A stretch of 54,784 bases of DNA, the filler included, from Jimgerdemannia flammicorona (Eukaryota), in the NCBI GenBank assembly GCA_003990765.1. It is 3 parts of 3 records of this genome, joined end to end, with 100 filler letters (N's around TTAATTAATTAA, not from the genome) between each part and the next. Parts side by side here need not be neighbours in the genome. Positions count along the whole stretch, not along the records: positions 1 to 18,196 come from RBNJ01002266.1; 2 more parts are not named here. One strand, 5' to 3'. The notes below the pieces were generated by a model. The model was not told the DNA's origin and did not search any database. It worked only from the letters and a program-made list of their open reading frames with translations. A program made the position numbers and the translations under genes. Position 1 is the first letter of the stretch; each line of letters starts with the position of its first letter. Of this stretch, positions 5,414 to 45,400 are shown in pieces.

Positions 5414-7331
5414 CTAGAATTCCATGCTCATCTCATCTCCAGCTAGATCCAAGCACCATTCAGCTTCTAAGTCACCCTCCACAATAGTCTGATCCTCCAG
5501 AGCCCCCAAGATTTCCTGACATTCCACCCTGTCCACTTCCTCTATATCTGACTGGTAATCCAAGCAAACTGCATGCCACTTCTCCAGTCCCTTCCTCGTG
5601 TTTCACAAGAAAAGTGCCTGGTCACTCACCATCTTCCTAAGTTCCTCCTCTCACTAATCATCAACCTGATACTCAACCGACTCCAAGAGGACAGCCAGGA
5701 TCTCATTCCTCATCTTCTTTGGCACCTCCTCTCCCCGAAGGATCTCCTCTCAATACCTCTCTTCCATCACCCTGAAATCCTCACCCCCCAGTTCTTCAGC
5801 CACAACCCCTTCCAGGGTCTTCCACATCTACTTCTCCTCATCCACTGCCTCTGCCGCACCCTGAGCAATTCGTCCCCCATCTACCTTGGGGTCTATCAGC
5901 ACACTCCATCTCACTGACTCATCCCACTCCTCGTCCAACACATCTAGCAGCTCCTCCTCCCCCTCAGCTCCACCCGAGACACTATACTGAGGGTACACAC
6001 CCTCACCCATTTTGATATCCGCCTCCAAATCACCCTCCCTTTCCACCTCCACTCCTATCTGTATCTCACTCTGGGCCAATTTTCCTCCCTCAGCCCAGGT
6101 GCTCCCCCGCAACCCTGCACCTCCCTCCCCTGAGCTACTACCAGCCCTATCCCCACCCAACTTCGCCAGCAGCTCCTTCTGGATTCTCCTCCCCTGCAAT
6201 TTCTCCCAGGCCCCCCTTCTCTATCTGGATCCTCTTCACATCCACCTCCCCCACCACCATTCTTGCCTCAAACTCCTCCCAGGCCAATCTCCTCCTTGCA
6301 ACTACCCCTTCCAGATCCTCCAGGGCCTCTAACAGGTCCTCTTCCTCCTCCTAGGTCCCCTTCACCCTTGTGACTTTACACTCCACTGGTCCCCACCTCA
6401 GCATTGCTGGCCAGTCCCTCGACTTCCCCGTATTCTCCTTCCCAGCCAGCCTCACCCTGACATTGATGTCACCAGTCCTAAGCTCCATGCCCTCCCAGAC
6501 CTTAAATCTGACATCTACAATCTCTCTATACTCCTTGATCGCCTCCACCACCAACTCCCTGGTCCTCTCCTTTGACATGGTAGGGAGATCCAGCACCATC
6601 AATTGCACCACTTGGGGGTCCCAGCATATGCACCGAGCCATAGGGACCATAACCCCACCAACTATCACCCCCTTCTCCATGGCTGCCAACAGAGTATCTT
6701 TCTCCTTGAACCCTACCTCAACCCCTTCTTTTCCCCTCAAAAACTTCACTGATGCAGCCCCCTTAGCCTCCTGTGCCACCAGCCCCAAAATCATCCTTGC
6801 TGTCACTGCCAAGCCCCGGAAGCACATCATGACTGTGAATTCTGACCTTGACTTCTTGAGTAACGGGGCTGACACTATGCCCGTCACTCCATCTGCCAGG
6901 TCCCCAGGCCTTGTGCCCACTCCCAGTCCCGAATTACCAACCACCATTATATCTGGATTTTTTGCCAGATCCCCAGTCACAGCCTCATCAATCATCATAT
7001 CTCCAGCCCCTACTCCTGCTCCTCCCCTGCCACCAGAGACTCCCCTGGGTACACCTCCCTATCCCCCAGCAGCAGCTGTCGATGCCTTCCCCAAGCCCAG
7101 CCAACCATCCAGACCAAAGTCCATCTTCCCCATTCTGACCTTGTCAGCAAAGGTCGACCTCTCCCCACCTCTCTGCCGCAGCCTGCCCCTCCCTCTACCA
7201 CCAGGACCTCAGCTAGCCATCGAGGCCCCTGGCATCCCCAAACCATCTCCCCTCCGCCTGACCTGCTACCAGCCAAAGGTGCCAGCACCCCCCTGGTCAG
7301 TACACTCATCAGTTCGATCATTGCCATCCAT
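5414..7331 (-). pseudogene. LINE ORF1 relic
   Basis: ATG 7331 is in frame with the ORF-track piece 6351-6998. It continues after a frameshift through 5828-6199 to TAG 5416-5414, just before ORF2. Confidence 0.65.
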
Positions 7332-7463
7332 ATTGATAGTCGCTGTACACCAAAAACATTGTAAAAAGTGTTGTCTGAGTCTTGTGTCACCAGAATGTTA
7401 CCAGTGAAAGATGTCTTCCAGAACTATATAACAGTTACCCTAAAAAGCAACTCTCTTACAACT

Positions 7464-7477
7464 TGGTAGCAGTGGTT
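7464..7477 (+). promoter_or_regulatory. Primer-binding site, probably tRNA-iMet
   Basis: TGGTAGCAGTGGTT 3 nt after the LTR end; copy 2 has TGGTAGCAGCAGTT at 43638. Confidence 0.75.
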
Positions 7478-9487
7478 TACAATCTAATTCCACTTCAAGA
7501 CACTTCCTCACCCTGCTACAAACTCTTTTGAGAATTCCTACAAGTTGGTATAAAGACCAACCTCTGAACTGGAATTTATCCTGAACCATCTGACAATCTG
7601 GAGAGAATTGAACCTAATGTACAAGAACAATTTGACCTCCACACCTGTAACAAGTAGGACAAACTTCATTCAAAGAAAGAAATATTCTAGTTAAATTAGC
7701 AAATAGGTGAAACCCTATTCACCGAACTCCTTGCACTACACCAAGCAAGTCAAGATGAAGAAGGTCTTATTGAAGCCTTCTTTACTCTCCTCAACAAGAG
7801 TTTTGTCAGCTCCACAAATCTGAGTGACCTAGGACAACCAGCAGCAGTCTTTCTAGCCATAGTTCCTCATGAAGCCCAAGCCTCTGTAGCCAAGTGGCTC
7901 AACTCTACTGACTTTCACCATACCAGGACTAAGACTGCATTATACTACTAATTCCAGAACAGTAAGGCCCACCATATTCTTAAAGAAGAAGTAAGAGAAA
8001 GCCTTCATCAACTACCTGACCCCGAATCTGAAGCAGGCTCTGCTACAGCCCTATCTGAATCAGAAACCAATACTGAACCTGAACTTGACTTTGAATTAAG
8101 TCCATCTGAAATCAGATATACAACTGATTCTATCTACTTTGATACCAAGCAAACCCAATTACATAGGGACCAAACTGAAGAGAAGGAGGAGTATCTTAGT
8201 GAATTTGATCCCGGATATATCACTGAAGGAGAGGCACCTCCATCAGGACAGAATACACCTATACAGTAACAAACAGCTATCTATCAAGCTCTTACTCCAG
8301 ACCCACAACTACTACTCCAGCAACTTATACAGATCCAAAGAACCCTATCACACTCTGCACCAGTACCTCAAGTAGTACCAGTAACACCACTACCAGCAGT
8401 CCAACCACCTCCAGTAAACAATATGGTGAATCAACAGATTCTAGACCTCACAGCCCAGGTAGCCATAATGGTAGCAACCATTACTGCCTTAGCTGAACAG
8501 ACCTGACCTACCAAAAATCTGAGCCTACCTACCTTCAATGGTACTGTACAAGAAGTCCAAAGCTTCATTAGTATAGTTGACACTAACTTCAAAGCCAATC
8601 AATGGACTAATGAGTAAGTTGCTGACTGTGTTCTGACAAACAATCAAGACCATACTCTGGAACAACTCTTTGCTACTACTACAGCCTATGTCCACTGAGT
8701 TGTTACATTCTTCCAAGGATCTGCCAAAGAATGGTGGCAAACCCTTCCTGAAAAACCCCTCACATGGGATACCCAACCTGCAGTAGTTGCTCAGAATATA
8801 GCAAACAATACCCCAAGATATAGAGCCTATCCTGTAGCCTCTAGACTCAAACAACTCATGATTGCTCAATACCGCAGCAAAACTATAATCACTGAATTCC
8901 GAGTAAAACTCTGCAACCTCAAATTTGATGTACATAGCAAAGAAGAATTTGAAACCTTCTGTACAAAACTCGAGTCACTCCTGAACACTGTTGGCCTAGG
9001 ATATATTATCAATAATGAAGTACAAAATGATACAAGAGCAGACCATTTATTCAATGCACTGTCTGAATGGCTTACTAGAAAAATCTGAGAACAAGGCCAC
9101 CCAGTTAGTTGTGATCACCAACAATGGTGCCTGGCAAGAACCAAGACTATGGTCAAGCAAATTCTAACAGCTGGACCAATTCTGCCCCGAAGACAATTCA
9201 ACAATAAGAAAAAGACTTAGACCAAGAAAGAAGAACCCAAGTATGAAGCATCCCAAGCTCCCTCTACATCCATCTCTTGGACACCTAGAAATCATGAATC
9301 CATCCAGCCAAGTATCTTCAAGAAACTCACTGAAGGTGAAAGAAATGAACTTCGAAGAAGCAGAGCATGCTTCTATTGCCAAAAGACAGGACATATGGCT
9401 AGCACCTGCCCTAACCAAAAACCCCAAACAGCAATATGAGCAACTATTACCACTCTGCACTACCTCAACAACCTGACCACCAGAACA

Positions 9488-9898: not shown

Positions 9899-12800
9899 AA
9901 GACCCCAACCCAACCTACCATAAACAAAGAAGAACAATTCTATAAGAAAATCGAAGATAGATATGTACCAAGTGGCCGATGTCCCCATGGCATTAGAATG
10001 TACTCATCCCAAATAATTGATGATTACTTCTCTTATATCAATGAATTGGCTCAAAGAAGAACCAACAGAAGAAAAGCTCCTATAACTGAAATCACCACCA
10101 TTGGATCAGACAAACTGCTTACACTTAAAGCTTTTGTCAACTGAGCACCTGTCAAGATTATGATAGACAGTAGTGCCTCAGGCAACTTCATTAATGAAGA
10201 GACAGCCAACAGACTCAAGGTCTTCACCTCTCCTATACAACAAACTCAAGCAATTGCTACAGCTAATGGAACCTCACATGTTATTAGCAAAGAAGTCTGC
10301 AATCTACCCTTCTGAATTGGTGACTACCAAGTACATGTTACTCTCCAAATTGTACTACTTCCTAACAATGAAATCATCCTTGGAACCCCATGATTGAAAC
10401 AAGAGAACCCTATGATCGATTGGATAAACCATTCTCTGACCATCAAGAAAGGACACCATAACTTCAAACTACAAGGTGAAAAGGACCCACTCAACTCTAG
10501 TGACTCTGGACCAAAGATCACCCATATCAATAAGCTACAACTCAAGAAATTGGCCAAGAAATGCCCTCTTTTTGCAATCTCCATCTGCCCATCCAAAGGA
10601 GAACCCAAGAACTCTGAAGAAGACTTTTCCAAAGTTGACAGCCATATCAGATCACTACTCCAGAAATTTCGAGACATATTTCCAAAGAAGCTCCTGAAAG
10701 GTCTACCTCTCAAATGAGCAGTAGACCATACCATCAAGACTATTCCAGATGCCAAACCAGCCTTCAAGTCAATCTACCACATATCTCCAAGAGAAATCAA
10801 TGTGCTCAAGAAAGAAATTGATGAACTCCTAGAATAAGAATTCATCAGACTCAGTATATCATCCTATGGTACACCAGTCCTCTTTATTATCAAGAAAGGA
10901 GGAGACCTATAAATGTATATTGATTACCATGACCTTAATAAACAGACCATCAAGAACTGTTGCCCACTACCAAGGATCGATGAAATATTCGATAAACTTA
11001 CCAATCCATAATTTATGAGCTCCTTTGACCTATAAAATAGTTACTGGCAAATTGCCATAAAAGAAGAAGACATATACAAGACAGCCTTCCAAACTCACTA
11101 TAGATACTTTGAGTTTCTGGTTATACCTTTTGGCTTAACTAATGCTCCTGCAATCTTCCAGATACTGATGAATATTATCCTACACTCATACTTGGACAAA
11201 TTCATTATTGTCTATATTGATAACATCCTAGTCTTTAGCAAAACTCTGGAGGAACATCTTAAACACCTTGAACTAGTACTACTGAAACTCCAAGAAAACT
11301 AACTCTTTGCAAAACTCAGCAAGTGTGAATTTCTCCTGAAAAAAATCTAATTCCTTAGACATATTGTCATACTGAATGAAATCAAAGTAGACCCCAGCAA
11401 AATCTCTGCAATCAAGAATTGGCCCAGACCCAAGAAGCTGAAAGATCTCCAGTCATTCCTGAGATTAGCAAACTATTACAGGTGATTTGTTGCCAACTTT
11501 GCTAAAATTGCTACTGCTCTCACCCAAATGACCAAGTATAGTAAGAAAGAAGAACAGCCCTGGACCACAAAACAAGAGAAAGACTTTAACAATCTTGTAA
11601 ATTGGGGACCTGAATAAGATACAGCCTTTCAAGCATTGAAAGATGCCTTGATAACCACTCCAGTACTTCAGGCAGCCAATCCTGCCCTACTATATGAAGT
11701 CACTCTGATGCCTCTGACCTAGCCCTTAGAGCAGTGCTCATGCAAGAAGGACACCCTGTAGCCTATCACTCCCGCAAGTTCAATGATGCCAAAATTAACT
11801 ATGTAACCCATGAAAAGGAAATACTAGCCATTGTAGATACTCTGATCAAATGGTGACCATACCTAAAAGGAGCACACTTCACTGTATTGACTGACCACAA
11901 ATCATTAGTCAATATCAAGATCCAGGCTACTCTTTCTCGAAAGCAAGCCAGATAGATGAAAGTCCTTACCAACTTTGACTATGAAATCCAGTATCGCTCT
12001 AGTAAGGAAAATATTATTGCTGATACAATCTCCAGACCACTCATTGAAGAAGTTATCCAAACTCTCACCTTGGTTACTAACACTATCATGGAGCAAATTA
12101 TTGCAGCATGTGTTAATGATAAGAAAGCTCAAGCACTCTGAGAAATCCTGAACAGTGATGATACCAATAAGCATATATAGTATCATCAATACCAACTGAA
12201 GGACAATGCTATCTACTACAAGGACAGACTGTATGTCTTAAATAATCAAGATCTCTGAAGGACTATCCTATTCAAATGTCATGATACCCCTATAGCTAGA
12301 TATTTAGGATTTGACAAATACTATAAAGTTATCTCCCGAAACTTCTATTGGCCCCACATGGCAGATCAGCTCAAGACCTATATCACTTCCTGTGATACCT
12401 GCCAATGGAACAAGTCCTCAACCCTGGCAAAACCTGGTCTACTCCACCCTATCCCAGTACCATCTGCAAATTGGGAATAAATCTCTATGGACTTCATTGT
12501 ACAACTACCCTGAACCAAGAATGGAAAAGATGCAATTGTTGTCTTTGTGGACTATCTCAGCAAACAAGCCCACTTTGTACCAACTACTACTACTGCAACA
12601 GTACCAGAGATAGCTATACTCTTGTTTGACAACATCTTCTGCTATCATGGTCTTCCTAAGATCATTGTTAGTGACTGAGATCCAAAATTCACCAGCCATT
12701 TTTGGAAAGCCCTCCATACATACTTTGGAACAAAACTCACACTATCCACAGTCTTTCACCCTGAAACTGATAGCCAAACCGAAAGAATGAACTGAACTCT

Positions 12801-13389
12801 AGAATAAATACTAAGGAACTATGTTTCCTACAGACAAGATGATTAGTATAAATACCTCACCACAGTTGAGTTTGCCTACAACAACAGCAAGCAAGCCTCT
12901 CTTGGAATGACTCCATTCTTTGCCAATACTGGACAAAACCCAAACACCCCTTTAACACTCATCTGAACTACTGAAGAACCTTCCACAGTTGAAGCTGTTG
13001 AAGAATTCCTACTCTGAATATGTAATCTGAGCCAGATTGCAATCAAAAATTTATCATAAGCTCAAGAACAACAGTCACAGTATGTTAACCAACACTACTG
13101 AGAAGAAACCTTTGATATTGGAGAAAAAGTTCTACTGGATATCTGAGGATACCAAGTTGACAACCTGAAGCACAGACCATCTACAAAGCTGAACAGTAAG
13201 TTCATTAGACCATTCGAGGTTATTGCACAAGTCTCCTCAACCTCCTACAAACTAGCACTATCAGACACCATTAAGATTCACCCAGTCTTTAATGTCCAAT
13301 ATCTCAAGTGATACAATAACAATGATGATGAACTATTCCCAAACTAAACCACAGAACCACCTGTACCTATCATTATTAATAACCAAGAA

Positions 13390-13545
13390 GAGTATGAAGT
13401 TGAACAGATCCTTAACAAACATGGTAACAAGAACCACCCTGAGTATCTTGTCAAATAGAAAGGTTACCTGATCCACGATATAATCTGGGAACCCAAGACC
13501 AATCTCCAGAATGCTACGGACTTAGTTCAAGAATATGATTCCTTG
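13390..13545 (+). pseudogene. Chromodomain at the integrase C-terminus
   Basis: EYEVEQILNKHGNKNHPEYLVK*KGYLIHDIIWEPKTNLQNA; the W codon has decayed to TAG. Confidence 0.9.
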
Positions 13546-13983
13546 AATAACTGAAATCCGAATACTCTGATACTATCAGTATATACTATATATTATACCT
13601 CCCAAACATTATAATTATCACAAACCAAACCAAGAACTCAGCAAAACAAGACAAGAATACTGACTCTCTGGAAAGATAGCAAAACTGAAAGTAAGCCTAT
13701 TCTCCCTGTACCACTAGTGGGAAATGAGGCATAGACATTTAAGAAGATTTCTTAGAGGAAATTCTCCAGCAGTAAATGACATCAGAATCACTTCTGGCAC
13801 ACAGTATTGAACACACAACCCTTTAATATGTGAATCCAATGTATTAGGCAACTGTACTATAAGCATGCCACTTTCTGAAAAAAATGGACTATATCAGACT
13901 TTTGACCTCCCAAATGGTATAACAACACTAGAACAAAATTAAAAGGCCCCGACGAGGATATCAAAAGCTAAGAAGGAGAGAGT

Positions 13984-16046
13984 TGTAAGTATACAACCTC
14001 CAAGCCACCAAAATCACATGTCATCCTCTGAATAAGCCACTGAAATCACATACAACCTCCAAACAAATCTGAAAATCATCTGCTTGATCATGAAGCTGAG
14101 TCAAATCAAAGTCACAATATACAAAGCTGAGTCAATATGAAGTTACAGAATATAAGATTCACATAAACAGAATTTTACCAATCAGGACCAAATGCATATA
14201 TACCGAGTACAGAGATGTGTCAAGCCAGAGAACTAAAACAAACAATAACCACAACTTCCAAATACACAAACATGATCACCAAGATCTACACCTGTATCCA
14301 TGCTGACATTTGGAATACTATTGTCAACCAAGCCACTCCCTCTCTGCCCCTTATGAATATCCATAGCCTGGTACTCCTCTATTTCATAGAAGCCTGATGG
14401 AACACCCTAAACATACTCAATGAGGCCCACTGAATTGGACAAATCTCAAGCTACTACTAGATTGGCCATCTCCTAGAAGATATGGTCGAACACTACCATG
14501 ATACAGACATTATCCAGATGTCTCAATACTAGAAACTCATTGTCTACAAATACCGAGAACTCTTCTATGAGTATAGCACTGTTATTCCCCACCTCTGAGT
14601 TACTATAGCCAAAATGGTTGCTACTCTATCCTATGGCCAAATCAACAATATGATACAAGAACTCAACCACAAGTACCTCAAGTATGTCAAAACCACAGAC
14701 AGAATCTTCCCACACTCCAATAATCATATTCTGCAAATATCCCAAGTTGGATATGCCATAAAGGACATCTATAATATAATCCACTTCAATGAAGATGAAA
14801 CAGAAGACAATGATCCCTCTGACACCAACATAACCTCTAGCCAAGGATCTCTGCCAACCCTGATCACACTGCCAACCTTACTGATGAACTTACAATAGTT
14901 CATAACTACTTACAAAACCTATTGGGACAATGACCACTAGTATGAATACCAACCTATGTTTACCCCTGATTACTTTAACTACAATGAAGAAACTAGAGAA
15001 TACAACCTGTACCTCCAGACAACTCTCAAGATTGAACCAACCACTCCATCACCCGAGTATGAGTGACACAAACCATAGCTACTAGCTTACTACAATCCTG
15101 CGACTCATAGTGCTGTAACCTACAGAAGGTATGCAGATAGTAAATCTGATGAAAGCGAAGATGATGCACCTCTCCTCTGCCCACTAACACCTTATTCAGC
15201 ATATGAGACAGATGATGCTATTCTGTGGGATGGTAATAAAGTTCCAATGTATTATTACCTTAGCGAACAAGGAGAAGTAATCTGTGAATCACTTTTTCTA
15301 GACAACTACTTCATCAGAGATGATGTCATCAATGGTGATGTCATCGAAGACTACCCAGACAGTGTCTAAACCTATAAATAGCTTAGCAGTTATAGTATAG
15401 TTAGATTAGCCTTATATGATATAACTGTGAACTGACTCAGTAGTCAGATGATCTCTTGACATATCAGATTACTCTTGTACTATGTGACTGCATTCCAACT
15501 CAGCAAGGTACTTAGTGCTACATCTATATTTAGCATAGTCCAGATAGCCCCTCACTAGTATAAATACCCCCTCTCCCAGACCTCAGAATCTCAGACTTGA
15601 ACAATCTGAACACAACTTCTGAGCACTTCTCCACAATACTCCTTGATACAATTATTTCTAGTATAGTAATATTATAAATAGCGAATAAACCTATTTAATA
15701 ACCCACAACTACCTTTAAGTAAATCTACTCTCCATTAGGTCCTGCTCCTAACCTCATCACAAAATTTCCTAATTGGGTATTGTCTGCAGTGATACACCTA
15801 TTCAACTAAGCTGGTTTTAGTTTCTTAAACTTCCTGAAATATAGAAAATCCTGAATATTTAGAACTAGTCCAAAAAAGGACTTTGGTTAAGACATCAACC
15901 CGATTTTGAAATCAATAAGCATAGAGGACATACTTCATATGAAATTAATCTTGACCATAAGAACACAGTCTTTCAGAATATCCAGAACTTCCAGAAAACC
16001 CTTCCAGAACTATATAACAGTTACTCTAAAAAGCAATCCTCTTACA
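13984..16046 (+). repeat. 3' LTR of family A (about 2.06 kb)
   Basis: Starts after the PPT with TGTAAG and ends CTTACA. The start matches 42476 and the end matches 7415-7460 and about 43590-43634. TATAAATA at 15559 and AATAAA at 15684. Confidence 0.9.
14272..15369 (+). pseudogene. LTR(U3)-embedded ORF relic, about 365 aa, unknown function
   Basis: One frame from MITKIYTCIHADIWN to DYPDSV* with about 9 TGA/TAG stops; copy 2 has sense codons at four of the five stops it covers. Confidence 0.7.
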
Positions 16047-16992
16047 CATAGTTAATTCCAAACTTAGAGTATACTAGAATTTCAGACTTTAAGAAATTAT
16101 CAGTCTACATATCATACCAATATACTGAAGGCTATAGTAGCTACAGAAGCCCAGTCTACTATTACTCTCAATAGTGATGAAGTAGAAGAGTTCTAAAATC
16201 TCATCCTTTAGGACAATCCAGACCAATTCTTGTAAGAATTGATCTCAGTATTCTAAGACTCTAGTATTTAGATTAAATCTCCCCAAGATCCCACATTTGT
16301 TCCTTATTTTGTAAAAGACAATATCATAAATTAGAGAGTCTCCACCACTATCAAATATGATGATATCATCAGTGATGACATCATTCCACTAATTGGTGAT
16401 ATATATGAAATATATGAAGTATGTGAAATAGATGAAATGTTTACTGATCTCATCTCCTTCAAAGATATCCTGACCTCTGGTAGTAATAAAGATAAAGTCT
16501 CTATGGTTTTGAATATTCTGCTCTAAGTTCTTAGTAATACTGAAATCTTCTGGTATCTTTTTTCTATATAACTGAATTCTACCAGTATTTTTTTCCTATA
16601 TTACTGAAATCTACTGGCATCTTGAACTTGTACAACTATTTATATAGGTACTTAAATTTATACTTACAACTGAAGTTTTCTATATTCTAGTATTTTATTT
16701 AGTTATTGGAATTTATATTTAGCTTTATATCTTAGCAATTATTGAATTATATTTTATATATACTCCTCTTATTTCCTTTCTAATAAAGTTAGTCAAGTTC
16801 ACTTATACTCAATTCTGCATAAACAATCTAAGAGATAATAAGATAGTTTAAAGATAAGAAGTTTGAGGACTATAAGATCTTAGAAAGGCACTCCAATAAG
16901 AACTTACTTATAAAAAACTTATGGTTAGTCTAAGAGATATATCTTGAAGAGAATCTAATATATTTGAAGAACTCAGTGACTACTATGTGACA
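16047..16992 (+). mobile_element. 3' portion of an LTR from a second family (B)
   Basis: Colinear homology with 41172-42151; ends ...TGTGACA, followed by (AT)n. Confidence 0.7.
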
Positions 16993-18196
16993 ATATATAT
17001 ATATATATATATAGTAAATAATAAACTCCTTTCTCTGCTACCTTACTGATTACAAGGTTTGGTAGGCAATCTTCCAAGTCCCCTTTCCCCTAATATTACC
17101 CCCTCTACCTCGGGTTGATTTGCTGTGTCTGCAGGGGTATAGTGGGAGGAGGGCAATGGTGATGAGTTGCCCCTTTATCAGTGTCGGATCAGTGCTTCCT
17201 CCACTTTTTTGTGGATTCTGGTGCCTTCAGCTACATCTGAGGTGTACCCATTTTGGTGCAGCACCTTCTTCCTTTTGCCGTCACTAACAAGGAGTTGTCT
17301 CAGTGTGTCTCAGGCTATATAGAGAGCAAGCCGACCTTGGGCATCAAGTGCCCAGTGTAGGTTACCTGCAGGTCTTCGGTACCTGTGGTGGGGCCCTCTG
17401 GCTTTGGTGAGCTTCTCGGCGAGCATGGTTCTGGCATAGGTGACTGCTTTTCGGGTGTTGTCAGGTTGGGAGGGGAGATGGCTATCACAGATAGGAGGAA
17501 GGGTGATAATGGTGGACTAGTAGGGTGCCAGGCTGGGGGCAGTTGTCAGGGCTGGGGCAGGTACTGCTTTGGTGGGGTCTTTTGATTGGTGCAGTGTGGT
17601 TAGGTAGTAGATATCACTCTCGGCTTCTTTTGGCAGGTAGCAGGATAAGGCCCCAGTCATCAGAGGGGGTCGGGGGGCCCGAGGCTACCCATTTCAGATG
17701 TCTTGGCTATACTCAACTGGAACCGGGAGCTGATATAGCAATGTGATCGAGGCCTACAGGCTTGAGTAGTGGGGTATTGGGGGCTTCCTCCCACCTCATG
17801 TGTAAGTTCTTTACTCACCTCGACTGAGAGAACCAGGCCCTACCCACCGTGTTGTACTTTGATGAGAGTTTTTTCTTTGTCTGTTATTCTCTTTGAGGTG
17901 GCAAGGGCTATTCTATTTGGCTTGGGCATGGCCTTATACATATGTTGGGTTCTCGGGCGTATGCTTTTGGTCATTGGCATATGGCTGGGTTTCCCCTGGT
18001 AGTAGGGAGAGTATAGTGTGCAGAATGAGGTATAGGCTTCTTTGCCCTGCTGCACCTGGCATGGTCAAGCTGCTGGACAATAGCTAGCCTAGGTTAATGG
18101 GGGGGCAGTGCTTGGTGGGTGGTGGGGGAGGGTTTTGGCCTATATAGTCTAGGTTTCCTTCCAATAAAATTCCGCGAGACATAGAGTCCATTAAAA

Positions 18197-19421: not shown

Positions 19422-22400
19422 ATGGCAGACACCGCCGCCCTGTCGCCCCTCATCGCAAAGGGCCTCACAGACCAGAAGTATGAAAGGCGCAAGCAGGCCG
19501 CTCTCGAGATCGAAAAGTACGTATCTTTGAAATCTCGCGCCTCGACCCCCATGTCCGTTCCACCCACACACCTCTTCGCCTACCCCCTTTCTCGCCTCAT
19601 TTCAAAAGGCTGGTACGCGACAATGCAAAATCCTTCGAGCGTATCAAGCAGATCATCGACACCCTCGTGAACGAGTACGCGTACTCCACCAACCCGCATT
19701 CCCGGAATGGTGGCCTCATCGCGCTGGCCGCGACTACTATCGCGCTGGGGCAGGTGCGGATGTGTTTCTTTCTCTCTTTTGTGTGTTGATTTGGTCGAGA
19801 TCAAGTTGGCCCGTATGCAGTACGGTTTTCCTGTTCGAGTCAAGGCATAAAATGGGCTAAAAGTTGGTGAAGGGAAAGCAAGCAGAGGAAAATTCAATAG
19901 GAGGCTTTTGCACCTGGATCAAGCTACTTACCGCACATCCAAAACAATCATTCCCGATCCCTTTTTTTCAACAGCAAAACGTCAATGTATATTTGGACGT
20001 CATTGTGCCGCCTGTACTCGCATGCTTCTCCGATCAGGACTCCAAAGTTCGGTACTACGCATGCGAGAGCATGTACAACATCGCAAAGGTCGCGAAGGGG
20101 GAGATCCTGCGGTACTTCAACGATGTCTTTGATGCTATGGGCAAGGTTAGGGAACTTCTTTTTTATTGCTATCTTGGTTGGATGATCATGGGGGATCACA
20201 GTGTGTTCGTTCAGGTCGGGTTATAAAGAACAGGTATTGAACCTAATATATCTGCCTCCACCCCTCCCCTAAAAAGCTTGCTTCGGACGCCGAAGTGATC
20301 GTCAAGACTGGCGCCGACCTCCTCGACCGCCTGATTGGCGACATCGTTGTCGAGTGTTCGACGACCTATGTCTCACCCCTTTCGGAACCGCTGAATCCCG
20401 TTGAGGAGCATAGCGGGTACCTGCCGCCCGACACGCCCGCCTCACTCCCGCGCAACACGGCCTTCTCCCTCCCGCGCTTTATCCCGCTGCTCTCGGAGCG
20501 CATCTACACGCAGAGCGGATTTACACGCCAGTTCCTCGTCAAGTGGATCGACCTTCTCAACTCCATTCCAGACCTCGAGCTCGTCTCTTTCCTCCCAAGG
20601 TTTCTCGACGGCCTCATCAAGTTTCTCAACGATCCACTGGAGGAGGTCCGAACCGCGACTTCCAAGGCTCTTGCCGAGTTTTTGCGCGAAATCAAAGAGG
20701 CTGCCGATGTCCGGATGAAGGCTCGTCTCGAGCAGCAGCGCATCGCGAGCGCGGAGCGGAAACAGAAGCTTACTTCCTTCACCTCCGCCATGGAGACCGT
20801 CGAGGCCGGGGAGAGGGAGGTTATCTTTCCCGGAACGACTGCAACAGGGGAGGAACCCGTGATGCCGACCCTCGTTGTGGAAGCGAGCCGGAGCGGAGTG
20901 AGCATAGATTTGAACGGCAAGATCCCTGAGGTAGTGGCCGCGGCGTCGACGTCGACGGAACCAGCGAGCGTGGCGACTATGGCTTCGGTTGTTCCAACGT
21001 CCGCGGTTGCGGAGGCACCACATAACGAAAACGACGGTAGTGGCAAGGGTAACTGGGTACCTGGACACGGTGTGATCATCGAGTACGCGAAAATCGTGGA
21101 GATCCTGATGGCGCACTTATCGTCAACCGACGAGGAAATCCAGCAGACGGCACTGCGGTGGATCAACGAGTTTATCGTCATTGCCAAGGAGGTCGTCATC
21201 CAGTTCACACCCAAGCTAATCACACCCGTCCTGCCCTCCCTTGCTCACTCGAATGGCATCATTAAGACAATCGCCATCGACACGAACAATAGCCTCCAGA
21301 AACTCATCCAGGAGACACCCTTTGCAGCTGCTACGCCACCTTCATCGTCAAACTCCACTGCAAGCCAGCCGGGCGCAACGGGGATCCCGCTCCCGCTGTC
21401 GCACGGACAGCGCTCATCGACGCCATCGCAACACCCGACCTCGAACCCGACGTCGCCGACATCGCCGCAGTTTCCCATCTCCACCACGTCGTCAGGATCC
21501 GGATCTGGGCAGCCGGTAGCTTCCACGCTCGCAATGCGCGCCTCCCTCGCCGAGGCTAAGCATCTCGGCCAGTCGCCCGCGCCGCCTGAGATCCTGGATA
21601 TGTCCATTGTTGACCCATTCGATTATCAGGCCACCGTCATTGCGCTCATGCTCCAGCTGCTCAATGAGCATGAAGAAACCAGAGTCGCCAGCTTGGAGTG
21701 GTTGCTCATGTTGCATAAGAAGGCACCCCATAAGGTTTGTGTCTGGGGTGGCGATTAGGCAGTTACAATGGTGAAATGAGAGCAGTTTGTTTATTATTAT
21801 TATTATTTGTCGGGGAAGGGATTGAGAAGTATGTAGGATGGGTTCTAATTTTTTTTTTTTTTTTTTTTGCTTTTCCTCGTCGAATGGATTCGTCATATCA
21901 GATCCTTGCCACAGACGACGGTACTTTCCCCGCTCTCCTCAAGACTTTATCAGATATATCTGAAGAAGTATATAAATCCCCCCTTTAATTCTGTCTACCC
22001 TCCTCCATATATCCCACATCGCCACTCACCCGTTTTTGAAATCGGGTCTTGTTTCAATCCCCACAGGTCGTCAAGCGCGATCTGCAGCTCCTGGCGCAGA
22101 TCTCGTCGTACTCCGACGATGATTACTTCACGCGGTTCATGATCAATCTGCTCACGCTCTTCAGCACCGACCGCCGCCTGCTCGACTCCCGTGGCAGTCT
22201 CATTATTCGACAGCTGTGCCTAAGCCTCAACTCGGAGCGCATTTATCGCACGTTCGCAGAAATTTTGGAGAAGGATGAGGTGTGTGACGGTTTGGGGTAT
22301 TTTTGGCGTATGCGTGGCTGGGGGAGGTGCAGATTTGGCATTTTCGGTGATTTTGTTCACATAGAAATGTTTTTTTTTTTTTTTTTTTTTTTTTTTAACG

Positions 22401-28698: not shown

Positions 28699-29258
28699 GA
28701 CTTTCCGGAGTAGTGCGGTTAGTCTTGGAGCTGTGTGTGTCCTGATATGGCTCCACTTGGTCTATCTTGAGATCTGAAAAATGTTTACCCTGAAACGGAT
28801 TCGCAACCCGCCACGGGCTGATACGATGATCAGAAATCAATCAAAAAATTTTCTAGTATATATACCCGCAACCCTTTCCTCCCGTACTTCCAGTTTTGTG
28901 TGCAGTTCTCATCTGACGTTCGAATCAGTACTCCTTTTCTTACCTCCCGAGCTCGGTGCTTCCTTCACCTTCTCTCCATCCTATCCCCTCGCCTCCGGTG
29001 TTATTGATTAATCGCATACTGTTTCGAATGAACCCGTGTGTGTCTTCCCAATAACTTCCAATCCCTCCCCCCCACAACATCGCCATTCAACAAAAATATA
29101 AAAAAAATTTCGGGTCGCTAGATCAGCCCCAGGTTTAGACAGACAACAATCCCCCACTCTTTGTACGGCGACCACGATCTTGCATGACCGCGACCGCGTA
29201 GACCCAGCCCAGTAGACAACAAACCTTTCCCAAGAAATTGCAATCCTTACCTTCAACC

Positions 29259-32107
29259 ATGTCGCACAGCCATTCGGACACAATTGTACCAGACAGTCAA
29301 CCGGACAAGAAGCCAGTTGAGTTTGAGGAGCAGGCTCACCACGAGCATGCCGACGAGATCCCGCCGGAGCTCGAGGTCCTCCTCCATACCGATCCCATGA
29401 AGGGCTTGAACGCCCAAGAGGTTGCCGAACGTCTTGCCAAGTTCGGTCCCAATCAGCTCGCCGAGAAGAAGAGCAACCCTCTCCTCAAGTTCCTTTCCTA
29501 CTTCACCGGTGCCATTGCCTACCTCATCGAGGTCGCCGCCATCATCGCCGGTGTCGTCGAGGACTGGATTGACTTTGGTATCATTCTCGCCCTTCTGCTC
29601 ATCAACGCTTGCATTGGTTTCATCGAGGAGGCTAAGGCCGAATCTGCCCTCGACGCCCTCCGCCAGACGCTCGCCCTCAAGACCCGCTGTTGGCGCGACG
29701 GAGAGCTCAAGGAAATTGACGTCTCTGACCTTGTTCCCGGTGATGTGATCGTCCTTCGTATCGGTGACATTGTCCCCGCTGACGCTCGTCTTCTCGGTAT
29801 TGGTGCCACCGGCGAGGCCACTGAGGGTGACCTCCAGATCGATCAGTCCGCTCTTACCGGCGAATCTCTCCCCGTCTCCAAGAACAAGGGCTCCACCGTC
29901 TACTCTTCCTCCATTGTCAAGCAGGGCCAGCAGCTCGCTGTCGTCACCAAGACCGGTGGCAACACCTTCATTGGTCGCGCCGCCAACCTGATCGCCATTA
30001 CCACTGAAGAGGGTCATTTCCAGAAGATCATCAACAGGATCGGTAACGTCCTGATCTGGTCCACCGTTATCCTTGTCCTCATCATCCTCATCTACCAGCT
30101 CGTCGCCTTCCGCAACACCGCCGATGGTAACTGGAAGAGGGTCCTCGAGAACTGTCTTGTCTTGACTGTCGCCGCCATCCCCGTCGGTCTGCCTACTGTC
30201 ATGTCCGTGACCATGGCCATCGGCGCCAAGCAGCTCGCTGCCAAGCAGGTCATCGTCAAGCGTCTCACCGCCGTTGAGGAAATGGCCTCCGTCTCCATCC
30301 TCTGCTCCGACAAGACCGGCACCCTGACCCTGAACGAGCTGACTTTCGATGAGCCCTACCTCTCCAGCGGCTTCACCTCCGACGACATCCTCCTCTATTC
30401 GTACCTCTGCTCCGAGCCCGGCGCCAATGATCCGATCGAGTCCGCTGTTCGCCGTGCCGCCGAGAGCGACCTCGCCGTCCTCAAGGAACGCAAGGGTCAG
30501 CACGACATTCCCGGCTTCAAGGTCACCTCCTTCCTGCCCTTCAACCCCACCACCAAGATGACTCAGTCTACCGTCGCCAACCTCGAGACCAGCGATGTCT
30601 TCAAGGTCGCCAAGGGTGCCCCCCAGGTTATTATCAAGCTAGTCGGTGGTGACGATGATGCCGTTCGCGCTGTCAACGCTCTCGCTCGCCGTGGTCTCCG
30701 TGCCCTCGGTGTCGCTCGCACTGTCCCCGGTAACCAAGAAAAGTACGAGCTTGTCGGTATGATCTCGCTTCTCGACCCCCCGCGTCCCGATTCTGGTGAG
30801 ACCATCCGCGAATGTAATGCCCTCGGTGTCGACGTCAAGATGGTTACCGGTGATCAGCTCATCATTGCCAAGGAAGTTGCCGGTCGTCTCGGTATGGGCC
30901 GTGTCATCCTCGATGCCAACCACCTCGTCGACCCCAACAAGACCGAGGAGGAGGTCACCGAGCACTGTATCCGCGCTGATGGTTTCGCCCAGGTCATTCC
31001 CGAACACAAGTACCGCGTCGTCGAGCTTCTCCAGAACAAGGGTCTGCTTGTTGGTATGACTGGTGACGGTGTCAACGATGCCCCCGCTCTTAAGAAGGCT
31101 AACGTCGGTATTGCTGTCCACGGCTGCACTGATGCTGCTCGCTCCGCTGCCGATATCGTCCTGCTCGCCCCCGGTCTGTCCACGATCGTCGACGGCATTC
31201 GCACCTCCCGCGCCATCTTCCAACGCCTCCGCTCCTACGCTCTTTACCGTATCACCTCGACCATCCACTTCCTCATTTTCTTCTTCATCATCACCATGGC
31301 CGAAAACTGGAGGATGCCTGCCGTCTTGCTGATTCTCATTTGTGTCCTGAACGATGCTGCCACCCTGGTCATTTCCGTCGACAACACTCAAATCTCTAGC
31401 AGGCCCGACAAGTGGCGCCTCGGCCAGCTCATGTTCTTGTCCTTCCTGTTGGCTATCTGCTTGGCCGCGCTCTCGTTCGCCCACTTCTTCATTGCCCGCG
31501 ATGTTTTCAATGTCAGCGATAACGAGCTGCACACGATCATGTACCTGCACGTCTCCTCTGGTAAGTATCATTATTTCTTTGTTTATTTCTCATGCTGTCC
31601 CAAACAATTCTCGTTCTCGCAAAACCCGACGCTAACGATTCATCCCCCCTTTCCATCATCTCCACAGCCCCCCATTTCGTCATCTTCTCCACCCGTGTCC
31701 CTGGGTATTGCTGGGAGAACCTGCCCTCGTGGATCTTCACTGCCTGCATCATTGGCACCCAGATCGTTGCTCTCTTCTTCTCCGTGTACGGTGTTTTTGG
31801 CCAGGGGGAAGAGGTCGCGCCCATCGGCTACGCCTGGGGCTTCGTTGTCCTTGGTATCTCTCTTGTCTACTTCCTGTTCCTCGACATCATCAAGGTCCAG
31901 ATCTTCAAGTACTGGAACTTCGAGCTCACTGCCAAGCTGGTCCCAACCCCGGCCCGCAAGGCCAAGCTCGCCGCCCGCAAGGCCGAGGCTACCCAGCACG
32001 AGCGCGTCATGGGCAACTGGAAGAAGGCTCAAAAGATCGCCAAGATGTCCGGTGTCATCCTCGCCATGCAGACCGCTGTCGAGGCCAAGAAGAAGACTGT
32101 TGCCTAA
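29259..32107 (+). CDS. PMA1: Plasma-membrane P3A-type H+-ATPase; 2 exons (29259-31560, 31668-32107)
   Basis: DQSALTGESLPV, IPVGLP, CSDKTGTLT, KGAPQ, DPPR, TGDGVNDAPALKKA. Intron GTAAGT...GCTAAC...CACAG restores SSAPHFVIFSTR. Confidence 0.96.
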
Positions 32108-33602
32108 GCAGCGCGTCTTTAGGAGTTTTGATCTTGAAGATCGAGGCTCTATTGTGTGTGTAGACGTTCCCAATGTACATCGTCCATAATAATTTTTCAC
32201 AATCGAACAATCCATCGCATTGCATCGAAGCCGCTCCAGTTTCTCCCTTTTTACATATGGATTTCTCAATGTGCATTAATTTCATCCTCGGTAGTCTTGT
32301 TTCGTTGGATGGGCGGACGACGCGACGGGGCTTAACTTTATTTAGCGGCATAGGATGTGTTTGCATCTCTTGTCTTGGACAGACGACCTCATCTCTCTAG
32401 CTACCTCGTACCATCTCTCGAACAAGCCTTTTGTTCTATTTTTTTTTTTTTCTTCTTTTCTTTTTACTTTTGTACATTCCTTTGGAGTTTGGTGTATGCG
32501 GCGGTGCTTCGTAGTGAAAAATTCTTTATTAATCGACTCATAGAATTCAACAAGGGCTTGGTCCCCTATGCCCTGAATAATAAACCAAGTTAACAAACAA
32601 CCCCTCGTCTCTCTTTTCGGCAAGGAGAACCTCCATTGGAAACGGACTGTGCGAGCACTTATCAGTTAGTAGCACACGGCCTTCGAACTCCGAAAAATTG
32701 GAGTGAACTTTTTGCAGCCCCGCTCATTTCATCAAAACGAGCAAAACGGCACATCGTAGTCATAAAACCGGCGCTAGACCATCTATTCCGGTCTGTCAAA
32801 CAGATGCACAAAAAAAAAAAGGAGATGGAACGATCGTGCAATCGGAGATGGGGACCCCATGTGCCATTTTTGTGTGAGAATTTCTGAGAATAACAAATCG
32901 CGCGCGCGGACGTGAGTGGAGCGGTTGATAGCAAGAACGCGGAGCATCGTGATTGCGTTCGGAACAGCTATCTCATGGACCCGGGTGCGACTGTTGGGTT
33001 TTTCCACGCGGTCAGATCACCGACGACGGATCGCAAAAGTACCGCCTTTTTAACTGTCCTATCGTAGTATATAATTAAGAGTAACCGAGACAACGTGACT
33101 CCCACCGAAATTCGATGACCACGTCACCGGGAGGTCATCCCTCTTGCATTCGCTCATCATGTATGTATTTCATTATTTATTTATTTCGCTGTTCAGAGTA
33201 AAAAGAAAAGAAGTAACTTGCAAACTGGGAAGTGTGATAATGTAACTTTGGCGTCAATGTATAAGTGAAGCCATCTGAAGTTTTCGCACCACTCTTAGGA
33301 ATGATGTGATGTGTAAAAAAGCCTTATCGCGATTCATGGGCCACGGGACAGAATCGTCACTGTTGCAGGTGACTACACCGTGGTAGCTTCTCTCTTTTTT
33401 ACGGTATCATTGCGCAATACCGCCACGCGTGAAACAAAAGAAAGTGAGCATGCGTTAGGATGACCCTGACCGATGGTGTGAAGCCGAACACCACCTCATG
33501 AGCATGGTCATAAATGCGTTTGTCCCTAGTTTCCAGACAATTGCTCTCTTTTCTTTTCTCGAATGCTGTGAATCGTCCCCAAGAAGCAGCAGCACCTCGG
33601 AG

Positions 33603-35225: not shown

Positions 35226-36392
35226 ATGAAACAGTCTACTCTGAAGTACGTCGTCTACACACGCTCTGAGGACATTGAAATTCGCTACTTGCACTCATAC
35301 ATGCCACATTCAACTGCAGCAAATTTTTTACCCTCAAGGATCCTAAGGAACCCCACCATGGGCCCGTCGAAAAGAAGAAGCCAGATCCTGTCCCAGCTGA
35401 ACCTACTGAGCAGGAGCCCGTCGTTGTGAAAGACATCAAAATGGGCGCCGCCATCGAACCTCTTGTAACCGAAGATGCGAAGGAGTCCGATGTCGTAATG
35501 CAGATTGACGATGAGGGGGATGAGGAAGGTCAGACAGAATCAATATTGTCAGCGTGAATCTTCGTTGTAATGATCATTCCAAACATTGGTAACTTACCCG
35601 CATTAATTGACGTAGTCTCGACGAACAAGAAGCTGCGTGATCTCTCGTCTAGGAAGAGGCGTCGCATCGTGCCCGACTCCGACGACGAAGACGAATACGT
35701 CCAAGAGAGGGCGACGAAGCGCGCTGTGAAGGCCGACCCGCCTGCGTCACCGGCGAAGAAGGCAAAGCCGTCTCTGACTCGCAATGTAGAAGAAGAGGTA
35801 GTGGGACCGAAAGCTAAAAGACAAGGCAAGAAAACGGCGCCTAAAAAATCGAACGGAGGAGACAGCCTGCCCGCCAGTCGTAAGCAGAATAAGAGCGGAA
35901 AGGTGAAGGAACCTGAGAAACTGGAACAGAAAAAGGCAGTTACGGATGTGTCGGCTGCTATTGAAAAAGACGAGCGTGCGAGGGAGGAGTCGGCTGATAT
36001 TAAAAAGGAGGAGCGTGCGGAGGGGGAATCGGCTACTATTAAAAAGGAGGAGCGTGCGAAGGAGGAATCGACTACTATTAAAAAGGAGGAGCGTGCGGAA
36101 GACGAGTCGGGGAATGAGAAGCTCAAGGAGGAGATTGAGGAAGCGGAGAAGGAAGAGAGGGAGGAGCAAGAGGAGACGAATGAAGTTCGGGCTGAGGCTG
36201 CCAAGTTGTGGGTATTGATAATGATGCTGTGCTGTTGGGGCTTGTGACAGTCTCCTCTTTTCATTGTAGATGATGGTTCTTATACTGGCGCCAAGTCTTC
36301 TCTTACTAAATTCTACGTCCGTAATCGTAGAGCAATGAAGGTTGACTGGAAGCCGGGATCAGAAGGAACCATGACGTGGAAGGAAGGTGAAA
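35226..36392 (+). CDS. CDC9: DNA ligase I N-terminal exons (partial; cut by the contig gap)
   Basis: Splicing intron 35246-35319 gives MKQSTLNKFF (PIP box). This is followed by a K/E-rich disordered region and ...WKPGSEGTMTWKEGE(K), matching the 'WKxGxKVPY' start of the ligase I DNA-binding domain. Confidence 0.72.
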
Positions 36393-42475: not shown

Positions 42476-45400
42476 TGTAAGTGCACAACTTCCAAGCCAC
42501 TGAAATCACATATGCCAGCTGAACAAATCTGAAAATCACCTGCTCAATCATGAAGCTGAGTCAAACCAAAGTCACAGTGCACAAAGCTGAGTCAATATGA
42601 AGTCACAGAACATAAGATTTACACAAATAGAATCTTACCAATCAGGACCAAATATATATATTGAGTACTGAGATATGTCAAAACAGAGAACCAAAACAAA
42701 TAATAATCACAACTTCTAAACATATACAAATATGATCACTGAGATCTATAATTATATCTGTGCTGACATTTGGAATGCCATTGTCAACTAAGCTACACCC
42801 TCTCTGCCCCTTATGAATATCCATAGTCTAGTATCCCTCTACTTCATAGAAACCCAATAGAATACCCTGAACATACTTAGCAAGGCTCACCGAATCAGAT
42901 AAATCTCAAGCTACTATCAGATCAGCTATCTCCTAGAAGACATGGTAGAACACCACTACAATATAGATATCACTCAGATATCTCAATACCAGAAACTCAT
43001 TGCTTGCAAACACTAAGAACTCTTTTATGAGTATAGTGCCATTATTCTCTGTCTTTGAGTTATTACTAGTAAAATGGTCACTATTCTGTCCTATGGTCAA
43101 ATCAACAATATGATATAAGAACTTAACTACAAGTATCTTAAATATATTCAGACTTGAACAGACTTGAATACTTTAACAGACTCAAACATATATACAAGAA
43201 CATTCTTGAATACTTTCCCACAATATCCCTTTACACAACTATTCCTAGTATAGCAATATCATGAATAGCAAATAAATCTATTTAATAACCCACAAACCAC
43301 TCTTAAGTAAATCCACTCTCTATTAGGTCTCACTCCTAACTCTGTCATAAAATTTCCTAATTGGGTATTGTCTGCAGTGATATGTCAATTCAACTAAGCT
43401 GGTCTTAGTTTCTTGAACTTACTGAAATATGAAAAATTCTGAACATCCAGAACTAGTCCAAAAAAGGACTTTAATTGAGATGTCAACCTGATCTTGAAAT
43501 CAATAAGTGTAGAGGATGTACTCCATATGAAATTGATCTTGACCATAAGAAAACAGTCTTCCAGAATATCCAGAACTTCCAGAAAACTCTCCCAAAACTA
43601 TATAATAGTTACTCTAAAAAGCAACTCTCTTATAACTTGGTAGCAGCAGTTTACAATCCAATTCTGCTTCAAGATGCTTTCTTACCCCACTACAAACCCC
43701 TCTGAGAATTCCTACAAGTTGGTATAAAGCCCAACCTCTGAACTGGAATTTATCTTAAACTATCTGACAATCTGGAGAGAATTGAACCTGATATATAAGG
43801 ATAATTTGACCTCCACACCTGCAACAAGTGGGACAAACTTCATTCAAAGAAAGAAATACTCCAGTTAAATCAGCAAATAGGCGAAATCCTATTTACTGAA
43901 CTCCTTACTCTATACCTAGTAAGTTAAGATGAAAAAGGTCTTATTGAAGTCTTCTTTACTCTTCTCAATAAGAGTTTTGTCAGCTCCACAAATCCAAGTG
44001 ATCTAGGATAACCATCAGTAGTCTTTCTAGTCTTAGTCCCTCATAAAGCTCAAGCCTCTGTAGTCAAGTGGCTTAACTCTACTGACTTTCACCACACCAG
44101 GACCAAGACCACATTATACTACCAATTCCAGAATTGCAAGGCCTGCCATATTCTTAAGAAAGAAGCAAGGGAAATTCTCTATCAATAACCTGATTCCAAA
44201 TCAGAAGCAGGCTCTGCTATAGCTCTATCTGAATCTGAAACTAATACCAAACCTGAACTTGACTTTGAGTTAAGTCTATCTGAAATCAGATATACAACTA
44301 ATTCTGTCTACTTTAACACTGAGCAAACCTAACTACATAGAGACCAAACTAAAGAGAAGGAGAAGTATCTTAGTGAATTCAATCCTGGATATACTACTGA
44401 AGGAGATACACCTCTATCAGACCAGAATACACCTATACAGCAACAAACAGCTATCTATCGAGCCCTTACTCCAGACCCACAACTACTACTCCAGCAACTT
44501 ACACAGATCCAAAGAACTCTATCACACTCTGCACCAGTACCACAAGTAGTACCAGTAACACTACTATCAATAGTCCAACTGCCTCCAGCAAATAATATAG
44601 CAAACCAACAGATTCTAGACCTTACAGCTCAGGTAGCAATAATGGTAGCAACCATTACTGCCTTAGCTGAACAGATCTGATCTATCAAAAATCTGAGCCT
44701 ACCTACCTTCAATGATACTGTACAAGAAGTCCAAAGCTTTATTAGTGTAGTTGATACCAACTTCAAAGTCAATTAATGGACCAATGAGCAAGTTGCTGAC
44801 CACCTTCTGATAAACAATCAAGACCACACTCTGAAACAACTCTTTGCTACCACTACAGCCTATGTCCGCTGAGTTGTAACATTCTTCCAAGGACCTGCTG
44901 AAGAATGGTGATGAACCCTTCCTGAAAAACCCCTCACATAGGACACCTAACCTGCAGTAGTCACTCAGAATGTAGCAAATAATGCCCCAGGATATGGAGC
45001 CCATCTTGTAGCCCCTGACTCAAATAACTCATGATTTCTCAATATCACAGTGAAACCATGATTGCCAAATCTTGAGTAAAACTCTGCAATCTCAAATTTG
45101 ATGTATATAGTAAAGAAGAATTTGAAACCTTCTGTACAAAACTCAAGTCACTCCTGAATACTGTTGGCCTAGGATATATTACCAATGATGAAGTACAAAA
45201 TAGTACAAGAGCAGATCATTTATTTGATGCTCTGCCTGAATAGCTTACTAGAAAAATCTGAGAACAAGGCTACCTAGTTGGTTGTGATCACCAACAATGG
45301 TGCCTGACAAGAATCAAGACTATGGTCAAGCAAATCCTAACAGCTGGACCAATTCTGCCCCAAAGACAATTCAATAATAAGAAAAAGACTTAGACTAAGA

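Follow-up and report, generated by a model that had tools for sequence, protein, structure and literature searches.

The DNA analysed here, called the window throughout, is a stretch of 54,784 nucleotides from the genome assembly of Jimgerdemannia flammicorona (GCA_003990765.1). It consists of three parts of three records joined by filler letters, and parts side by side need not be neighbours in the genome. The window contains two dead copies of a chromodomain-bearing Ty3/gypsy retrotransposon, both mutated by repeat-induced point mutation (RIP). The 3' long terminal repeat (LTR) of copy 1 holds an accessory open reading frame (ORF) on the sense strand, of which the core (14614-15369, 252 codons) is shown, by comparison with an outside homologue named P0002 and by codon statistics, to have once been a genuine protein-coding gene. 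The features on which this is based are the following.

13970..13982, plus strand: polypurine tract AAGAAGGAGAGAG, one base ahead of the LTR (sequence read)
13984..16046, plus strand: 3' LTR of copy 1, 2063 bp, TGTAAG...CTTACA, with a 6-bp terminal inverted repeat
14272..14613, plus strand: possible N-terminal extension of 114 codons, in the same frame as the core, with five RIP-type stops; coding-like by statistics only
14395 (TGA), 14431 (TGA), 14458 (TAG), 14530 (TAG) and 14596 (TGA), plus strand: internal stops of the frame 14272-15369 ahead of the core (translation)
14614..15369, plus strand: core accessory ORF, 251 codons and TAA, with four RIP-type stops (P0002 alignment, tblastn, codon usage)
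14896 (TAG), 14938 (TAG), 15064 (TGA) and 15076 (TAG), plus strand: internal stops of the core, with the terminal TAA at 15367 (translation)
15559..15566, plus strand: TATA-like TATAAATA, with identical octamers at 15373-15380 and 15673-15680 (sequence read)
15684..15689, plus strand: AATAAA (sequence read)
42476..43634, plus strand: 5' LTR of copy 2, with an internal deletion of about 0.9 kb corresponding to about 14695-15590 of copy 1 (self-comparison and alignment)
43074..43154, plus strand: first 27 core codons in the 5' LTR of copy 2, left of the deletion (tblastn with residues 1-27 of P0002, 67%, E 4e-7)

Within the window, the gene lies inside the LTR. Both the core and the longer frame of 14272-15369 fall between 13984 and 16046, with the ORF start 288 to 630 nt into the repeat. 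An earlier note on this DNA had put the LTR at about 2 kb, which agrees with the 2063 bp found for the 3' LTR. Upon comparison of this LTR with the 5' LTR of copy 2, similarity began exactly at TGTAAG and stopped at CTTACA/CTTATA before the primer-binding site (PBS). In copy 2 the same TGTAAG-led sequence stands directly 5' of the PBS and gag, including the 630 bp preceding the core ORF. Mis-set LTR boundaries, with the ORF in reality in the internal region, were ruled out by the polypurine tract, the TG/CA ends and the 5' LTR of copy 2. An extra protein gene wholly within the LTR and on the sense strand, as had been proposed, is supported by the LTR boundaries and by the homologue.

Near the LTR start (13984-14060), copy 1 has about 49 nt more than copy 2, apparently a local duplication of a ...AAGCCAC...AATCACAT... 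block. Eight soil contigs part from the window sequence after 14032, in the same region.

The frame itself is decayed. It had been described as uninterrupted from 14272 to 15369, with four stops listed; translation gave nine internal stops, and that description does not hold. All nine are T-initial, either TAG or TGA. The longest stop-to-stop stretches in the region are 99 and 96 codons, and the longest ORF with ordinary start codons encodes 94 amino acids. The four stops listed before (14395, 14431, 14458 and 14530) do stand opposite CAA, CGA, CAG and CAG in copy 2, as had been stated, and the TGA at 14596, which was not among them, is common to both copies. The alignment also reproduced the reported 2-nt indel just 5' of the ATG at 14272 and showed that 14272-14694 is free of indels. 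Two 2-nt indels between the copies fall within the 80 nt ahead of 14272.

Copy 1 and copy 2 show 462 aligned differences, of which 427 are transitions. An A follows in 118 of 206 C/T differences, and a T precedes in 49 of 90 G/A differences. This CpA to TpA bias is the spectrum of RIP, which, taken by itself, would most likely point to a filamentous ascomycete as host. A truffle (Tuber, whose Tmt1 element has a dUTPase) is an unlikely source, since for truffles methylation induced premeiotically (MIP) rather than RIP is given as the process in use in the available text of one report (PMC12581995).

One line of evidence for a gene comes from outside the window. A search with the 365-residue translation of the frame, stops read as X, returned a sole match among 358 candidates: P0002, an intact protein of 247 amino acids from a public contig of 998 nt. 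A profile search of 1,835,955,588 representative proteins likewise matched P0002 alone. Its alignment with the window frame runs from the Met of 14614 to the last residue, with 146 of 251 positions identical (58%) and 198 of 251 positive (E 8e-101), and the gaps are limited to two in-frame ones of two residues each. In the opposite direction, tblastn of P0002 against the window gave E 5.7e-94. The residues of P0002 opposite the four core stops are Q, W, Q and Q. Undoing C to T or G to A changes in the window codons accounted for 39 of the 101 residue differences (22 of 101 in the reverse control), so at least 62 of the differences between the window and P0002 represent true divergence.

Stop codons are scarce in the ORF frame: it has 10 per 366 codons, and the other two plus-strand frames have 19 and 35 per 365. 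The flanking LTR (15370-16046) has 16 to 22 stops per 225 codons, and gag in its own frame has 8 in 580. Codon usage was scored with a model trained on the gag-pol of the element itself. The core (14614-15366) reached 0.271 bits/codon, against -0.13 and 0.04 off-frame; off-frame scores were overall at most 0.12, and the non-coding LTR parts gave 0.0-0.1 in all frames. As a control, gag scored 0.247 bits/codon by a pol-only model, and the maximum among 346 windows of RIP-type non-coding DNA was 0.230. In sliding windows the signal was unbroken from about 14242 to 15320. The marks of a selected gene, namely a frame conserved across diverged copies and coding statistics, were found, in two copies within the window and a single protein from outside it.

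That no selected gene ever existed here, and that P0002 is a chance long frame of the ancestral LTR called on the contig of a less-mutated relative, is considered highly improbable. In its favour, the single database protein has neither a family nor a confident fold, and no RNA run with the LTR was found. Against this explanation, start and stop have been kept over at least 62 differences that are not due to RIP, with gaps in-frame only. In neutral simulation from the window ORF, 62 amino acid differences accumulated without a stop in 108 of 2000 runs and 101 in 16 of 2000, so neutrality keeps the frame open in at most 108 of 2000 runs. The codon-usage and stop-deficit signals, moreover, equal those of gag.

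Further homologues were sought in several collections. None was present in the shorter length class of the protein database. Among JGI (Joint Genome Institute) metagenome contigs, peptide patterns gave 145 matches, of which none was confirmed, and a degenerate pattern of the LTR DNA gave no match; in viral contigs, 115 pattern matches were found and none was confirmed. Outside the two element copies, a tblastn search found no relative in the window.

The length of the gene is less certain. The extent of 365 codons claimed before is upheld by the outside homologue for the part from 14614 onwards; for the N-terminal 114 codons the claim is left with the statistics of the window. These statistics are favourable: the segment 14272-14613 scores 0.251 bits/codon in the frame of the core, and none of the 346 null windows is as high. 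A RIP-aware consensus of the two copies keeps one stop in this frame of the segment, against five and four in the others. The TGA at 14596 reads CGA in one soil-metagenome contig, in frame and with no net indel. The coding region probably, if by no means surely, extends upstream to about 14272, and this longer region may be either a single frame of 365 codons or an upstream frame that the TGA at 14596 cuts off from the core. In the alternative, the gene is the 252-codon ORF of 14614-15369 and nothing more, 14272-14613 being a leader or promoter whose coding-like statistics follow from its composition. This is possible, if somewhat doubtful. The first residue of P0002 aligns exactly with the Met of 14614, the TGA at 14596 stands six codons ahead of that ATG in both copies, the whole 365-residue query found no homologue of the N-terminal part, and the start context CCAAAATGG has an A at -3 and a G at +4. 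A core-only gene is less easily reconciled with a codon-usage score above 346 of 346 null windows, with the near-open consensus and the CGA of the soil contig, or with copies that are indel-free from 14272 onwards after two 2-nt indels in the preceding 80 nt.

Copy 2 spans 14272-14694 only, which is 141 of the 365 codons, and its deletion also takes the TATAAATA at 15559. P0002 runs colinearly past the left edge, which means that copy 2 lost the 0.9 kb and copy 1 did not gain it. On either side of the gap lie short CAGAC/CAGAATCT repeats, which would fit a microhomology deletion. As the TATA box at 15559 was lost too, the deletion appears to be damage and not a design of another kind. An ORF that arrived as a separate insertion was ruled out, because the first 27 codons lie to the left of the deletion edge in copy 2 and the homologue is colinear across it.

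Relatives of the element were found in soil. When sequencing runs were screened for words of the LTR, no RNA run was retrieved and two soil-metagenome DNA runs were the only ones found (shares 0.08 and 0.06). Short contigs from these two runs (7053 and 851 placed) show 80-99% likeness across the whole element, including the ORF. At positions where the window has A or T the contigs mostly have G or C, which indicates that less-mutated members of the family exist in soil. The summed depth of the contigs is 1340-1532 over 15257-16100, about twice the 565-672 over 14093-15256, and 230-690 over pol.

This step in depth bears on another explanation, in which the ORF module was captured late, from host or other mobile DNA, by one LTR subfamily, as part of a modular and variable 5' half of the LTR, is dispensable and is absent from most LTRs. 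Depth about doubles 3' of about 15257, copy 2 persists without most of the ORF, and in the available text of PMC10787394 crapaud of Podospora is described as having LTR families whose 5' halves have diverged. Nevertheless a late capture is judged unlikely: neither the 1.84 billion representatives nor the rest of the window yielded a relative in a host gene or another element, the codon usage of the ORF agrees with that of the element's gag-pol, and the depth of soil contigs is an unreliable measure.

All three TATAAATA octamers and the AATAAA are located 3' of the ORF stop, and the octamer that had been reported at 15559 is indeed present at 15559-15566. From their sequence, TATAAATA and AATAAA are putative promoter and poly(A) elements. 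Their position downstream of the stop would place the gene in the U3 region of the LTR. The main TATA-driven genomic transcript would then start 3' of the gene, which would be U3-encoded like sag of mouse mammary tumour virus (MMTV). The most likely route of expression would be a short mRNA of its own, from a promoter within the first 0.3-0.6 kb of the LTR, and this mRNA would end at the LTR poly(A) signal, AATAAA 15684. Fungal introns are short, and a spliced 3'-coterminal RNA, in the manner of nef and sag, is for that reason a less likely alternative. The least likely mode of expression is one in which LTR transcription starts 5' of the ORF, so that the ORF lies in a very long R/U5 and forms the first cistron of the genomic-RNA leader. 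It would be compatible with the presence of three identical TATAAATA octamers, by which the motif alone cannot fix the promoter. The TATA-like octamers and the AATAAA are nevertheless all 3' of the ORF, and an ORF of 1.1 kb before gag would be expected, from scanning translation, to hinder the translation of gag. Such a leader cistron is therefore held to be very unlikely.

The product is acidic and rich in aromatic residues. P0002 (247 amino acids) contains 46 Asp+Glu, 10 Lys+Arg, 36 Tyr+Phe+Trp, 9.7% Pro and no Cys, with an isoelectric point of 4.05 and a grand average of hydropathy of -0.81. The maximal Kyte-Doolittle mean over 19 residues is 0.97 for P0002 and 1.33 for P0001. The usual threshold for a membrane span by this mean is about 1.6, and no hydrophobic segment long enough for such a span was found in the product by the Kyte-Doolittle method. 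No Pfam family was found for P0001 or P0002 at E<=0.01 and E<=0.001, in agreement with the earlier statement that the product belongs to no recognisable family. The best match of a sequence profile in the PDB was unrelated (E 0.51), and the ESM Atlas gave no usable feature match; its own model had a pLDDT (predicted local distance difference test) of 0.39, with all template-modelling scores at most 0.30. AlphaFold2 models, proposed before as a check, were made and had a mean pLDDT of 32.1 from a two-row alignment and 33.0 from the single 365-residue X-read sequence; with means of 32-33 they gave no clue to a fold.

In the C-terminal coding part, a 15-nt tandem repeat is present at 15311-15350 (2.7 copies, 76% matches), which encodes the repeated acidic motif ...IRDDVINGDVIED...

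The acidic-aromatic C-terminal part resembles activation domains by its composition alone, which is a lead. The product would be a soluble, largely disordered protein-binding factor acting much as acidic activation domains do, and may aid expression of the element or titrate a host factor; confidence in both is low. The anti-silencing or transactivator role suggested before is speculation.

Taken together, a decayed sense accessory gene embedded in the LTR of a RIP-mutated chromovirus, with expression and action broadly as proposed above, is regarded as the probable reading. Gene and position have good evidence behind them, but little of it: two decayed copies and a single protein from outside the window. 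Several points weigh against this reading. P0002 is a single homologue, from a contig of 998 nt, and its ORF may or may not lie in an LTR too. Protein databases list open frames only, which biases what turns up. Copy 2 is without two thirds of the gene, and the depth step may mean that many LTRs of the family lack the ORF-bearing part, contig depth being a poor measure. The start of P0002 at the Met of 14614 and the TGA at 14596 in both copies speak against the version of 365 codons. The U3 placement depends on a start site and a poly(A) site that are predicted. Finally, the AlphaFold models, of very low confidence, neither support a folded protein nor hint at its function.

The remaining features of the element were determined by self-comparison of the window and by Pfam on translations in which stops were read as X. 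The gene order is gag-CCHC, dUTPase, protease (PR), reverse transcriptase (RT), RNase H, integrase and chromodomain, and copy 1 is laid out as follows.

7414..7460, plus strand: remnant of the 5' LTR, its last 47 nt, ending in CTTACA (blastn of 7415-7460 against 16001-16046, 93%)
7464..7475, plus strand: PBS-like TGGTAGCAGTGG, 3 nt past the LTR end, with a homologous site after the LTR of copy 2
7700..9439, plus strand: gag, with a CCHC zinc knuckle close to the end (PF00098, E 1.5e-4) and eight RIP-type stops in 580 codons
9515..9895, plus strand: dUTPase domain, after the nucleocapsid CCHC knuckle and before the protease (PF00692, E 3e-28)
10100..13539, plus strand: pol (translations of frames 9440 and 9442)
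about 10100-10456, plus strand: protease (RVP_2/gag-asp_proteas)
about 10892-11356, plus strand: RT (RVT_1, E 2e-26)
about 11701-11976, plus strand: RNase H (RT_RNaseH, E 4.5e-25)
about 12244-12762, plus strand: integrase (Integrase_H2C2, rve)
about 13120-13314, plus strand: Tf2-type SH3 domain (SH3_Tf2-1)
about 13393-13539, plus strand: chromodomain (Chromo, E 4.4e-9)

The order PR-RT-RNase H-integrase and the C-terminal chromodomain of the integrase are those of a chromovirus, and the TG...CA ends, the PBS after the 5' LTR and the polypurine tract before the 3' LTR are those of an LTR element. The frame changes between RT and RNase H, and pol ends near 13560. The nearest database polyproteins to the pol of the element are 40-46% identical. 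A sequence beginning TGGTAGCAG is located 3 nt past the LTR ends at 7460 and 43634; from this position and the TGG start, TGGTAGCAGTGG is the putative PBS, and the window contains no tRNA gene for comparison. The remainder of the 5' LTR of copy 1 is gone, with unrelated GC-rich DNA upstream in its place. Downstream of its 5' LTR, copy 2 continues with the PBS and with gag as far as its truncation at 45897.

The dUTPase had been presented earlier as part of an undescribed lineage. The domain is present within the gag-pol frames (PF00692), but it is not new, since dUTPase in fungal gypsy elements has been published (PMC2864245). A dUTPase in the polyprotein is shared with the PosPlaTy3 families of Postia placenta, elements of Phanerochaete and Tmt1 of Tuber; in one PosPlaTy3 family it stands at the N-terminus of Pol (PMC2864245). 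The available text of that paper makes no mention of an LTR-embedded ORF in the dUTPase-bearing fungal gypsy elements. The nearest dUTPase-bearing database polyproteins (P0004 and P0005, 45% identical) have the domain between PR and RT.

Both copies are found near the same kind of DNA. An AT-rich repeat with a GC content of about 0.28 occurs at 16049-16993 and 41172-42152 (73% identity over about 1 kb, self-comparison); it abuts the 3' end of copy 1 and lies about 320 bp 5' of the 5' LTR of copy 2. Accordingly, the two insertions lie within or next to one and the same repeat family, which is heavily RIP-mutated. A 90-bp inverted repeat (40558-40647 and 45895-45984, 82%) flanks copy 2 together with the repeat upstream of it. 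Its right arm starts exactly at the truncation of copy 2 (45897), a hint that the break involves a rearrangement or a further element. The DNA that replaces the 5' LTR of copy 1, from about 4000 up to 7413, is GC-rich (0.49-0.55) with a strong excess of C over G (skew -0.52 to -0.56). It contains long overlapping open frames (6351-7058 on the minus strand and 6355-7407 on the plus strand), rich in Pro, Ser and Thr and without a Pfam family. Between the copies, in window coordinates, intact host genes are located at 29238-32189, 20295-21758 and 33498-34643, in DNA of normal GC content between RIP-affected blocks. They encode an uninterrupted P-type ATPase of 983 amino acids of the plasma-membrane H+-ATPase type, whose closest structures are those of fungal Pma1, a HEAT-repeat protein and an F-box protein. 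A tandem duplication of about 80 bp with 84% identity is present at 35951-36110.

A protein gene inside an LTR is a layout known mainly from a few retroviruses. The superantigen ORF of MMTV, sag, is located in the U3 of the LTR. The gene described here resembles sag in being a sense ORF wholly in the LTR, carried at both ends, with an LTR that is unusually long for that reason. It differs in showing no sequence relation (no Pfam family), in a product without a hydrophobic segment and in its element, a chromovirus of an apparently fungal host and not a retrovirus, in which the U3 placement is a predicted one. Nef of HIV/SIV and bel/bet of foamy viruses overlap the U3 of the 3' LTR. These, too, are accessory genes at the 3' end that use LTR sequence as coding sequence, but they start in the internal region and overlap the LTR, whereas the present ORF is entirely in the LTR. 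Searches of Pfam (no family) and of PDB profiles (best E 0.51) placed the product with neither nef nor sag by homology.

In LTR retrotransposons, additional ORFs (aORFs), env-like or antisense, are described between pol and the 3' LTR in Athila, Bagy2, Grande, RIRE2, Retand and the fungal Boty in the available text of PMC7264820, and ORF0 of rice Retrosat2 is described upstream of gag in that of PMC3485330. As far as these texts go, the aORFs resemble the present ORF in being family-specific extra frames whose function is not known, without outside relatives and evolving faster than pol (PMC7264820, PMC3485330). They differ in their location in the internal region, the present ORF being in the LTR. 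The position between pol and the 3' LTR and the transmembrane segment of env-like aORFs were not found for this ORF, which lies in the LTR and has hydropathy maxima of 0.97/1.33. The chromovirus crapaud, from the RIP-active ascomycete Podospora, has LTR subfamilies with differing 5' halves (available text of PMC10787394). By this description its modular LTRs may parallel the depth step in the soil contigs; crapaud differs in that only gag and pol ORFs are described for it in the same text. In the open-access full-text literature, in so far as its text was accessible, no retrotransposon was found whose LTR is described as carrying a protein gene.

With the gene in the LTR, reverse transcription would place a copy at either end of each new insertion, and the gene would persist in solo LTRs. 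One could go further and regard the LTR as a self-contained cassette of promoter, 252-365-codon ORF and poly(A) signal, from which every LTR, solo LTRs included, would express a trans-acting, acidic, disordered protein. Acting for the whole family, the protein might for instance transactivate the LTR promoter or serve as a decoy for a host factor of genome defence or chromatin, and would amount to a complex regulatory gene in the style of retroviruses, of independent origin in a fungal retrotransposon. Such a picture is considered very unlikely.

Extra genes are known in LTR retrotransposons, and those found described are all internal; a gene in the LTR is a different layout. Its dosage and persistence would be unlike those of any internal gene, in the same arrangement as the superantigen of MMTV. 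The copies in the window are dead, and their value is as a pointer to the family. If live members of the family do exist in soil, it would become testable how a fungal element expresses an accessory gene like that of a retrovirus, and what part an acidic orphan protein plays for a retroelement in a host with RIP.

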